Origin: Eledone cirrhosa
Taxonomy: Eukaryota
Length of the DNA: 64,000 nucleotides
Direction: 5' to 3'
NCBI GenBank assembly: GCA_964016885.1
Contig: OZ024763.1
Span: forward strand, 28,768,001 to 28,832,000
Shown: positions 2,085 through 8,700 of the stretch, piece by piece
Layout: each line of letters starts with the position of its first letter
Numbering within the stretch: position 1 is the stretch's first letter
Notes under the pieces: model-generated
Database searches by the model: none
The model's input: the letters and a program-made list of their open reading frames with translations, nothing else
What the model was told of the DNA's origin: nothing
Position numbers and translations under genes: made by a program

Positions 2085-2216
2085 AGAAAGAGAGATAAAT
2101 GGAGAGACTAAATAGATCTAGATATAGATAGATGACAGATAGATAGATATATAGATAGATAGATAGAAAGAAATAGAGAGAAAGGAGATCGATAGACAGA
2201 TATATAGATAGATATG

Positions 2217-2708
2217 TTTCTTTATTAGTCACAGGGGCACAAAAGAGGGGACAAATACAAAGGGGGAAGTTTACATACAATAAAAACGTGTAAAATGTTA
2301 TCACAAATGTAATTTTAAAAAGTTAGTTGATTTTCCCCAATAGGGGGAGACATTACATATGGGTAACACATACCCCCGAAAAAATGTGCAACCCTCATCT
2401 CCAGGAGTACGAAGAGTTTGTACTCCTTTCCTCTCCTCCTCCTTTTCCTCAACCTACAGGCTGATATAGAGAGAAGGCCCATTCACTCGGGCCATTCTCG
2501 CCACTTTCACCCACCTTTCATAAAACTTGCTGGGGTACAGCACCTCTCTCTTCATCCTGATTCTTCTTCCAAAGTGGTATTTGAAAAAAAGAATCAGTTG
2601 TTGGCCGGAGAGAAAGGTGTCTGACCTCAGCCCTTTCAACCTCGCCCACCATGCAACCTCTATCGCCATAGCTATCACACAAAGGAAAACCGCCTCTCCT
2701 TCGTTTTT
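2217..2708 (-). mobile_element. 5'-truncated Tx1-like element, subfamily B (ORF2 C-terminus plus 3'UTR)
   Basis: Translation WWARLKGLRSDTFLSG...RMARVNGPSLYISL* is homologous to the ORF2 end at 2958-3180. AATAAA lies near the 3' end. The flank AGATATATAGATAGATA (2198-2214) recurs at 8434-8450 once the nested full-length copy is removed. Confidence 0.85.
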
Positions 2709-2957
2709 GATAGATATATAGATAAATTTCTATTTATTTGCCACGAGGGCACAAAAGAAGGGGACATTTACACAGTGGGGGAGTTTACATAAATCGAGTA
2801 AAGAAAAAAGGAATAACAATAATAATATAACAATAAAAAGTCCTCAAAAGGGAGGGGGCGTGTTGGGGATTGCACATACCCCCGAAAAGTGTGCAACTCT
2901 TTTCGCGGGGGAAGCCCAGAGAGGAGGCGCTCCCCCCTTTCCTCTTCACTTCTTCAC

Positions 2958-6395: not shown

Positions 6396-8254
6396 CTATT
6401 TTGGTGTTGAAAGTGAAGAAAGAAAAGCACTTACCTCTCCGGGTTGCGTAATTTCCATGGCATCAGGTGTGTTGGGTGGAGGGATGTTTTGTGGTGGTGT
6501 GGGGGTACACGTGTGTGGTGGGGTTGGGGTATTTGGAGTTGTGTCAGGGAGAGGGGCGGTTATGGGGAAATCTTTCAAGAGGACGCGATTCAACGGTTTT
6601 AAACAGGGGGGGCTCACGTCCCGTCTAAATTGTTCTTTTAAGGAACGATAAAGGTCCAGAGGGACCTTTATCATTTTTAAATGGGTGAAGTTCTCTGTTG
6701 AGATAAAGTTTGGCCCTTCGGTCTGCACCATAGGGTTATTGTTTATTAATTTAACCAGTTTTTTGTTTTCTTTATTTATATATGTGTATTGCAACGTCTT
6801 TTTTTGTGATGCTGTCAATGTTTCGGAGAGGGGAGGCGCAGATTTATTTTTGTTTGTTGAGGGTGGGGTGTTTTTGATTGGAGTTGGTGTTTGTGTGTGG
6901 GTTATTTGTGGTGTGCTGGGTGTGTGTTTTCTTTTTTTTCTTTTAACTTGTCTGAAGGCTTCTCCTCCTTCTTCTTCAGAAGTTGGGGGAAACTCTTCAG
7001 CGCTAGGTGGGAGGGACGTGTTGTGTGGTTGTTTTTTTTTTGCGGGAGGGGTAGATTTGTTACTGTTTTTTTTATTATTTGTTTGGAATGGGTTTTGTGG
7101 TAGTGGTGGTAATGTTTGTGTTGTGCTTGTGGTTGGTGATGGTGGTGTTTGTGTTGTGGTTGGTGGTGGTGATTTTTGTGTCGTGCTTGTGTTTGGTGCT
7201 GGTGGTGGTGATGTTTGTGTTGTGTTTGTGGTTGGTGGTGCCTGTATTTTGTTTGCTGTGTGTGGTATTAGTGTATTTTTGGAGGTGGGTGGTGTTGGTG
7301 TACTGTTTGTGGTGGGTGTGGGCAATAGTCCTTTTTGGGGGATACGTTTCGGGCAGTTAGCCTTAACGTGTCCCCTTTCCATGCATAAATAGCATGCTGG
7401 TCTTCTCCCCTCTACAATTATGTCTATTGGGGTAAGGTCATCCAGCCAGATGCGATCCGGGATTTGTGCTATTCTTTCGGGCCTCATTTGGACTAGTATG
7501 TCGAGGCCCATTCCCAGGAACGCATCTCCAGTTGCCTTCCCCATTGACAGCATTGTGTCTTCGCCCATATCAATGAAGCCAGCAATAGCCCACCAGAAGT
7601 CCATTGTGGGCAGCATTGTTTTTACTTTTACTCTCTGTGTTCTTCTACCCATGTAGGAGGGATAGAAGCTATATGTTGTCGATGAGAGTGGGCTTAGGGA
7701 AAGCTTCTCCGCCGTTTCCCTGTCTCTTGTTAGGACCGAAATGCTGCCATAGAGTCGGTCCTTTCGTATGAAGAGAATATTCTTCATATAGTCTTTTAGG
7801 ACTAACTCTATTTCCATTTGGCTGGGCTGTGCTGGCTTTCTTGTCTGGTTCAGTATAGTTCTGTAGAGAACTGTGTTTTCTGCTCTGGCTTTCTTGAATT
7901 CTGGGGGGGGGGGGAGTTAATGGAAAACATTCCGTTCTCCCCCAAAACAATGTGTTTCTTTGCTTCGGCCAGTTTTTCTCTGGCGGCAGTTAGGTCAATT
8001 GGTGTGTATGTAACGGATTGTTTTGTTTTCTGGGCGAAAGTTGCCCTGTTGTTATTTGTATTATTTTCTGTTTGTTTGTTTTCTGTTTGCTCATTTTCCT
8101 TAACATTTGTTTTTTCATTTTCTTTGTTTGTTTCATTGTCTAATTTTGTTGTAATTATTTTTTGTTCTTCAGACTTGGGGGGCATGGCAGAGCTAATGGC
8201 AGACATGTCTGCCATCTTTTCCGCCATGCTGCCAAGAAAGAAATTTTTCGGCAA
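6396..8254 (-). pseudogene. Tx1 ORF1 (gag-like nucleic acid binding protein), one frameshift
   Basis: CYLCMERGHVKANC zinc knuckle and a Pro/Thr-rich tail. The frame of 6396-7817 stays open upstream (PPPEFKKARAENTVLYRT) to the G12 run at 7903-7914, where it joins ORF 7850-8254. Confidence 0.85.
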
Positions 8255-8500
8255 AAATAGATATTTATTTTACCCCCTAAAAAGGGGGTATATGCAAAAA
8301 TGTTTCCCTAAAAAACAGGGGTTAGTGTTCCAAATGTGTTGCACTGAAAAATTTATCCGGTACTTACAATAGTAAGGGTAAATCCCGATGGAATAGCGGA
8401 GCCGATGTGAAGCGTGTCTTACTCTATCAAGATAGATATATAGATAGATAGATAGACAGATAGATAGATAAATGGATAGATAAATGGATACATAGATATA

Positions 8501-8700
8501 TTTCTTTATTAGCCACAGGGACACAAAAGAAGGGGACAAATACAAAGGGGGAAGTTTACATACAATAAAAACGTGTAAAATGTTATCACAGATGGAATTT
8601 AAAAGTTAGTCGATTTTCCCCAATAGGGGGAGACATTACATATGGGTAACACATACCCCCGAAAAAAAATGTGCAACCCTCATCTCTAGGAGTACGAAGA
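8501..8700 (-). mobile_element. Very short 5'-truncated Tx1 subfamily B copy (3'UTR only)
   Basis: Near-identical to 2217-2416, same orientation, in the same GATA tract. Confidence 0.85.

Follow-up and report, generated by a model that had tools for sequence, protein, structure and literature searches.

The window analyzed here, a 64,000-nucleotide stretch of the Eledone cirrhosa genome (contig OZ024763.1, forward-strand positions 28,768,001 to 28,832,000), contains three insertions of related non-LTR elements, B1, A, and B2, in one degenerate tract of GATA repeats. In window coordinates, the locus is composed as follows.

2056..2214, plus strand: left part of the degenerate host (GATA)n tract (TRF period 4, 40.8 copies, 72% matches)
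2195..2214, plus strand: probable B1 target-site duplication, left copy (17 identical bp; 20 bp including one mismatch, A removed)
2215..2708, minus strand: B1, a member of family B truncated at its 5' end, with the last part of ORF2 and the 3' UTR
2709..2724, plus strand: A target-site duplication bordering the 3' end of A (16-mer identical to 8431-8446)
2725..8430, minus strand: A, full-length 5,706-bp L1/Tx1-type LINE, broken in the window copy
2725..2957, minus strand: A 3' UTR, ending AATAAA-TAGAAA-TT and abutting TATC directly
2958..6462, minus strand: A ORF2, with APE endonuclease, reverse transcriptase, and C-terminal zinc-binding domain (Pfam PF03372, PF00078, weak PF13966)
6396..8227, minus strand: A ORF1, gag-like, one CCHC knuckle, Pro/Thr-rich, overlapping the ORF2 frame by 67 nt
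8431..8446, plus strand: A target-site duplication at the element's 5' end
8431..8450, plus strand: right copy of the B1 duplication, inside the host GATA spacer
8431..8498, plus strand: host GATA spacer between A and B2 (TRF period 4, 78% matches)
8499..8701, minus strand: B2, 203 bp of 3' UTR from a family B copy truncated at its 5' end, 94.6% identical to B1
8702..8934, plus strand: right part of the host tract, GATA/GA/GACA (TRF)

A preliminary description of this sequence had proposed three Tx1-type insertions in a common orientation within one (GATA)n tract, and mapping of B1, A, and B2, all on the minus strand of a degenerate tract (72 to 78% TRF matches), bears this out. The same holds for its placement of A inside the duplicated flank of B1, as a 17-mer at 2198 recurs at 8434 and, with A taken out of the sequence, can be lengthened to 20 bp at the cost of one mismatch, and for its second B copy some 70 bp further on, with the 3' end of B2 lying about 70 bp from the 5' end of A. 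Its view of A as full-length with a target-site duplication stands as to the length, the ends being set by 64 genomic copies about 98 to 99% identical, and as to the exact 16-mer, GATAGATATATAGATA, that borders A at 2709-2724 and 8431-8446; however, the open reading frames are broken and the 16-mer is not unique. The duplication strings of both A and B1 are in fact repeated, since GATAGATATATAGATA has a further occurrence at 2142 and the B1 17-mer a third at 2145, both inside the host tract. The A duplication at 2709-2724 contains a TATA interruption. A readable duplication was also looked for around B2, and none was found.

B1 is 95 to 97% identical to genomic B copies, matches ORF2 amino acids 1084-1167 by tblastn, and carries AATAAA a few nucleotides before its junction, without poly(A). 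It shares 94 to 95% identity with B2 over 203 nt and 72% identity with A over 495 nt. Perfect repeats in the window amount to 7,286 bases of (TA)n and 838 of (CA)n, with only 132 of (GATA)n, and neither blastn nor tblastn gave a further copy of the lineage in the 64 kb, in agreement with the earlier statement that the (TA)n, (CA)n, and triplet tracts of the window are free of it. At its 5' junction, A opens with TT-GATAGA, which inverts the target lying upstream and so creates a short inverted repeat across the junction (window 8422-8436); the fold is weak (-2.7 kcal/mol), with a longer arm in one variant (the downstream copy at L126).

GATA repeats at both junctions of genomic copies

The 3.0-Gb genome was searched with element ends, the scored matches being the best 40 of 506 to 2,021 candidates per search, so the junction samples lean to young copies. 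With the A 3' UTR as query (best 40 of 1,678 candidates scored, 30 fetched), GATA was joined directly to the element in 30/30 loci; with the 5' end of A (659 candidates, 30 loci fetched), it was again present in 30/30, with at least two units in 25. Among 64 distinct full-length A copies examined on both flanks, TATC was found at the 5' junction in all 64 and at the 3' junction in 63, at least three units were present in 56 and 46, respectively, and exact TATCTATC stood at the 5' junction in 58.

The background was taken from 20 unselected 10-kb stretches (200 kb) at chosen round coordinates, which are no formal random sample. There, 197 of 400,000 strand positions are the start of an exact TATCTATC, which puts two TATC units at 0.049% of positions versus 2.2% for four TA units. 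The same 200 kb yielded 13 motif matches, two of which were dismissed by eye; the 11 remaining lineage 3' ends had TATC within 8 nt in nine cases, ATT in two, and (TA)n or (CA)n in none. An element was present in 4/4 GATA regions with a run of at least six units and in 5/11 GATA regions overall. An unrelated repeat beginning with three or four TATC units and the same GC-rich start was seen at three places in this sample (L171:6626 and 7574; L185:4992).

For 33 of the 64 full-length A copies, the 3' end of another lineage member lies no more than 150 nt upstream. One group of at least four A copies is arranged head to tail, some of them one TATC unit apart (L126, L127, L130; C3:339.67-339.69 Mb), and one mosaic (L133) consists of A from position 2211 joined within ORF2 to the upstream part of another GATA family. 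When A copies were picked by their 3' ends from 40 matches (L131-L167), 29 of 30 reached position 1, most being 98 to 99% identical to the window copy, unlike family B and the sister families T1 and T2 described below, whose copies are often truncated. Such near-complete full-length insertion of young copies is unusual for a LINE. Family A lacks poly(A), its AATAAA lying a few bases ahead of the repeat.

Older and truncated relatives

Family B had ATCTAT at the 3' junction in 25/30 fetched loci (1,759 candidates) and was off target in the other five; full-length copies of it occur in the genome. Among 45 distinct truncated B copies (56 rows minus duplicates and internal deletions), 34 carry at least two TATC units in the 28 nt ahead of the element and 11 do not; since 5'-truncated copies cannot carry a 5' leader, these upstream repeats represent the target. 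The older family H had TATC at the 3' junction in 23/30 copies; among its seven non-GATA flanks, three begin with (TA)n and two with (TC)n. GATA specificity is thus strong but leaky rather than absolute, given the off-target fractions in H and B. A separate (TC)n-seeking family, suggested by one locus (L056), was rejected when 23/30 relatives proved to lie at TATC.

The preliminary description had named two findings that would count against it, namely non-GATA flanks at most genomic copies and GATA confined to a 3' tail. Neither was seen, as the flanks of A, B, and H are predominantly GATA and TATC precedes every full-length A copy and most truncated B copies. Its proposal of two diverged subfamilies sharing this target was right in that A and B are both found there, but clustering of 172 3' ends together with the tree below gives at least seven GATA families, not two.

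The 5' truncations of B cluster 375 to 383 nt from the 3' end (9/45) and again near 257 to 259 nt, and the clustered sites share TC or ATTC microhomology with the target (L026, L032, L041, L044, L050-L053, L168). A short non-autonomous subfamily could alternatively account for this clustering. At three loci (L035, L060, L198), the 5' truncation point carries a minisatellite built from a 27- to 56-nt piece of the end of B ORF2.

Target-site duplications

Where duplications can be read, they measure about 10 to 20 bp; the remaining copies have short ones, none, or ones concealed by perfect repeat units. Those that include a non-repeat unit were found at L059, L050, L168, L052, L057, L054, L032, L298, and the window A copy (16 bp). 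Among these are an 18-bp duplication at a non-GATA site without TATC (L059) and a 20-bp duplication (L050) that has one mismatch and continues beyond the end of the repeat. Two further copies (L210, L216) have TA on both sides, and TATC is absent from the 3' ends of L059, L039, L210, and L216; such copies show that the element does not bring the repeat with it as a fixed tail.

Long duplications are not the rule in family A, where an interruption was duplicated in only 2/32 copies with an interrupted 3' flank (shuffled mean 0.36, with 42 of 1,000 shuffles as high). Automatic calls for truncated B copies (14/35, compared with a shuffled mean of 4.8 and maximum of 10) shrank to about seven that hold by eye, the others being tandem copies or pure repeats. 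A fixed 16-bp duplication was rejected on the junctions of the 64 A copies, and the numbers were too small to call longer duplications in truncated than in full-length copies (about 7/35 by eye versus 2/32). Nor was there a significant asymmetry between 5' and 3' run lengths in A (Wilcoxon p 0.73). No empty allele was found.

Coding capacity of family A

Both open reading frames are open in 9/64 full-length A copies. In the window copy, ORF2 is disrupted by a frameshift near 5908-5957 and by a premature stop codon at 3453-3455, while the interrupted ORF1 has 506 amino acids open versus 622 in an intact copy. Pfam was run on the window pieces and on the intact copy L095: zf-RVT scored 25.2 bits in A, just below the 27.5 cut-off, and above it in the TAA-seeking sisters. 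ORF1 shows one C-x2-C-x4-H-x4-C motif, and its match to PF00098 is below cut-off (E 0.015-0.019). ORF1 of T3 gave no Pfam match. The APE catalytic motifs are intact in the GATA and TAA groups alike.

The AUG of ORF2, present in B, C, and the TAA families, is missing in family A through a change from N-M to K-I: the start codon position reads ATA and overlaps the ORF1 stop as ATAG (window 6396-6410, minus strand; L095:2400-2440). K-I was found at 64 of the 65 A junctions listed and Met at none, and the first in-frame Met lies downstream of the first endonuclease motif. Since A is nevertheless the youngest family, its ORF2 is probably translated from a non-AUG start or through a frameshift. Restoration of the AUG by A-to-I editing was rejected, the site being predicted to be unpaired (0.55-0.97 at three window sizes). 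Three weak Rfam matches, all far under the gathering score, likewise gave no case for a ribozyme or other RNA family in the element, and the 5' UTR fold is unremarkable (z -0.8).

Sister families at TAA repeats

One of the unselected stretches (L184) contained two elements (450-690 and 7855-8080) with about 73% DNA identity to A that end in (ATT)n. Searches for such sisters gave 1,298 and 1,677 candidates, and at least four families, T1 to T4, were recognized on (ATT)n/(TAA)n, with thousands of candidates genome-wide (L221-L370). ATT adjoined the 3' end of T1 in 30/30 copies and that of T2 in 28/30, the other two having ATT followed by (CTT)n; for T2, the repeat was shown on both sides, with ATT at the 5' end in 28/30, and the 5' ends of T3 and T4 also lie at ATT. 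A count of truncated T2 copies (8/23) was discarded, as at least seven rows were full-length copies with an indel in the reference. ORF2 is open in several copies of the TAA families and is about 68% identical to that of A (about 60% in the endonuclease), so the repeat target has changed inside a single lineage of this genome.

For a tree, the C-terminal 298 residues of ORF2 were compared in 41 rows (at most two per 88% cluster from 174 pieces, plus eight outside proteins; P0032 and P0033 were left out for no or a short match). The 18 GATA rows fell on one side of a branch with support of 97/100, and the TAA families and P0001 stood at the base in no resolved order; the tree program warned of long branches. 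A change in the direction from TAA to GATA is suggested by these sequence relationships. Between the endonucleases of the two groups, 17 columns are fixed for different residues, although three of these columns have only a single row in each group. Among the remaining 14 is a column with Ser in the GATA group versus Ile or Met in the TAA group, at the position that corresponds in the alignment to the B6-B5 loop tip of L1. As the switch is a single event, this difference is a lead only.

Relation to known elements

ORF2 joins an N-terminal APE endonuclease to a reverse transcriptase and a C-terminal zinc-binding domain, as in the APE-type elements of the L1 group, and lies nearer to L1 ORF2p (PDB, E 1e-49) than to R2 (E 3e-22), with no full ORF2 of the CR1, RTE, or I group among the matches. 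Truncation at the 5' end, a fixed 3' end, the lack of LTRs, and a target-site duplication readable in a minority of copies place the elements among the non-LTR retrotransposons. Membership in the Tx1 clade is likely; the 54 homologues compared include no named Tx1 reference, and for a gag-like ORF1 with a CCHC knuckle, a feature of that clade, the PF00098 match stays below cut-off. Human LINE-1 ORF2p (PDB 8uw3 and others) is the closest solved structure over the endonuclease and reverse transcriptase, with the same APE motifs and the same loop length. LINE-1 has a poly(A) tail, a loose preference for T tracts, and mostly truncated copies; the present lineage differs in its lack of poly(A), its strict repeat target, and its CCHC-type ORF1.

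A LINE has been regarded as microsatellite specific when one sequence type makes up more than 20% of its flanks (PMC4494074), and the shares here are 63-64/64 for A, 25/30 for B, 23/30 for H, 30/30 for T1, and 28/30 for T2. The closest parallels are Kibi and Koshi, teleost Tx1-clade LINEs on (TC)n and (TTC)n (PMC4494074, PMC3812793), which are likewise APE-type elements specific to a microsatellite and, if the published repeat names follow that strand, likewise carry the pyrimidine-rich strand on the element sense strand. Their published targets set them apart from the (TATC)n/(GATA)n of this lineage and the (ATT)n of its sisters: (TC)n was found at the 3' junction of only 2/30 H copies and 0/64 A copies, and (TTC)n at none of the GATA families, the nearest case being the two T2 copies with (CTT)n. 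Crocodilian Tx1 families (PMC4494074) also comprise several related families on tetranucleotide repeats, but prefer (TTCC)n/(TTTC)n. GATA or TATC is absent from the main text of that paper, whose supplements and Fig. 3 labels may add Tx1 targets.

LINE targets listed in PMC3812793 are ACAY, AC, TC, TTC, and TAA. Microsatellite targeting is shared with Dong (R4 clade) on (TAA)n, Waldo and Mino (R1 clade) on ACAY/AC, and Togen on (TG)n (PMC3812793, PMC4640811), and Dong shares its target with the TAA sisters. The sisters encode an APE endonuclease in an L1-type ORF2, whereas that of Dong/R4 is restriction-like (PMC4640811), so their TAA targeting would be convergent. SART1Bm and TRAS1 are also APE LINEs that need several target repeat units, but they belong to the R1 clade, have a telomeric target, and need a poly(A) tail (PMC7265360). 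Cephalopod L1-Tx1 elements have been counted, and the accessible passages of those reports mention neither "target site" nor GATA (PMC13282606, PMC8967140). No GATA-target LINE was found in the literature searched. The lineage works like Kibi and Koshi, being neither of them by target, and represents a known kind of targeting with GATA as an apparently new target.

Related sequences were abundant in contigs of three other species labels (four runs). A metagenome scan with P0004 found nothing, and an Atlas search returned only generic endonuclease and reverse transcriptase clusters.

Interpretation

We conclude, with a probability of about 85%, that the three insertions belong to a multi-family L1/Tx1-type LINE lineage that inserts into (GATA)n in one orientation by endonuclease-led targeting. 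Target-primed reverse transcription is established for this group of elements. The ORF2 endonuclease would nick the GATA strand, from which reverse transcription would be primed; the nick may fall at the TpA step of the purine-rich strand, GAT^A in the GATA families and AAT^A in the sisters, as nearly all 3' junctions begin with ATC or ATT, respectively, although microhomology keeps its position from being fixed inside the repeat. The duplication, usually unreadable in perfect repeats, would result from a second nick at a distance of at most about 20 bp. Each insertion would leave target on both sides, which may explain the stacking of copies in one tract. In the window, B1 likely came earlier and the younger A would then have entered its upstream duplication, an order that matches the divergence of B (about 4 to 5%, older) and A (about 1 to 2%). 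That the APE endonuclease sets the repeat target is inferred; endonuclease-determined targeting has been reported for this LINE group (PMC4494074, PMC1950540).

An alternative, which we consider rather unlikely as the main explanation but which could act together with endonuclease targeting, is that the RNA, by read-through into the tract flanking the donor, carries target repeats at one or both ends. Annealing of these repeats to GATA DNA would then account for a large share of target choice and of the joining at the 5' end, and the endonuclease would be a less strict one that nicks at TpA. The exact 5' ends of 29/30 A copies picked by their 3' ends would fit such a process, as would a peak of A 5' runs at five to six units, a 12-bp duplication with two extra units at one 5' junction (L096), and truncations that often join through 2- to 4-nt microhomology. 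However, upstream TATC is also found in 34/45 truncated B copies, some copies have no TATC tail at all (L059, L039, L210, L216), and the single-unit spacers between tandem copies (L126, L127) and the likeness of 5' and 3' run lengths (p 0.73) lend no support to RNA-borne repeats as a requirement. Such repeats may nevertheless help 5' joining.

It is improbable that the elements themselves made the repeats, by tail slippage or repeat addition, without a pre-existing target. Occupation of all four long GATA tracts in the unselected sample fits either causal direction, but the flanks are degenerate, differ at each locus, run for hundreds of bases, and are found upstream of truncated copies as well, while interruptions are duplicated in the readable duplications and some copies have no repeat. 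Still less credible, very improbable in our view and contradicted by the junction counts, is a scheme in which copies inserted at random and were later kept by selection in repeat-rich DNA or brought there by recombination: although the genome is very repeat-rich, the junctions keep a base-exact register and one orientation, the roughly 45-fold commoner (TA)n is avoided, and each family has its own repeat (GATA versus TAA) in copies only 1 to 4% diverged.

Beyond endonuclease-led targeting, it is possible, if on balance doubtful, that the GATA branch arose from TAA-seeking kin by few endonuclease changes, including the replacement of Ile/Met by Ser where the minor-groove loop B6-B5 has its tip, as part of a living radiation that splits up microsatellites and whose youngest family is almost always full-length, is joined at its 5' end via target repeats, and has an ORF2 without AUG. 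How APE endonucleases read a given repeat was poorly understood as of 2013 (PMC3812793). The young GATA and TAA families, with open reading frames in both, form a natural pair in which a target switch could be mapped between nearer relatives than those used for the loop grafts among L1, Tx1L, and R1 (PMC1950540). The near-complete full-length insertion of family A is also of interest for RNA-based gene insertion, and the apparent occupation of most long GATA tracts in the genome by the lineage matters for microsatellite markers and repeat annotation.

Other features of the window

A SINE-like repeat of about 200 bp, with many copies, occurs at 120-515, 1862-2050, 9850-10040, and 34700-35499, in inverted pairs and one 3.9-copy tandem array, and its ATT-rich end adjoins several TAA-family insertions. 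On the minus strand at 63296-63781 lies a 161-amino-acid open reading frame with no Pfam match that may resemble the C-terminal region of the ORF2 of a different LINE. Fold-back pairs, formed by long inverted duplications that are nearly perfect, were seen by eye beside microsatellites at 1059-1131/1142-1229 and 10385-10520/10521-10660.
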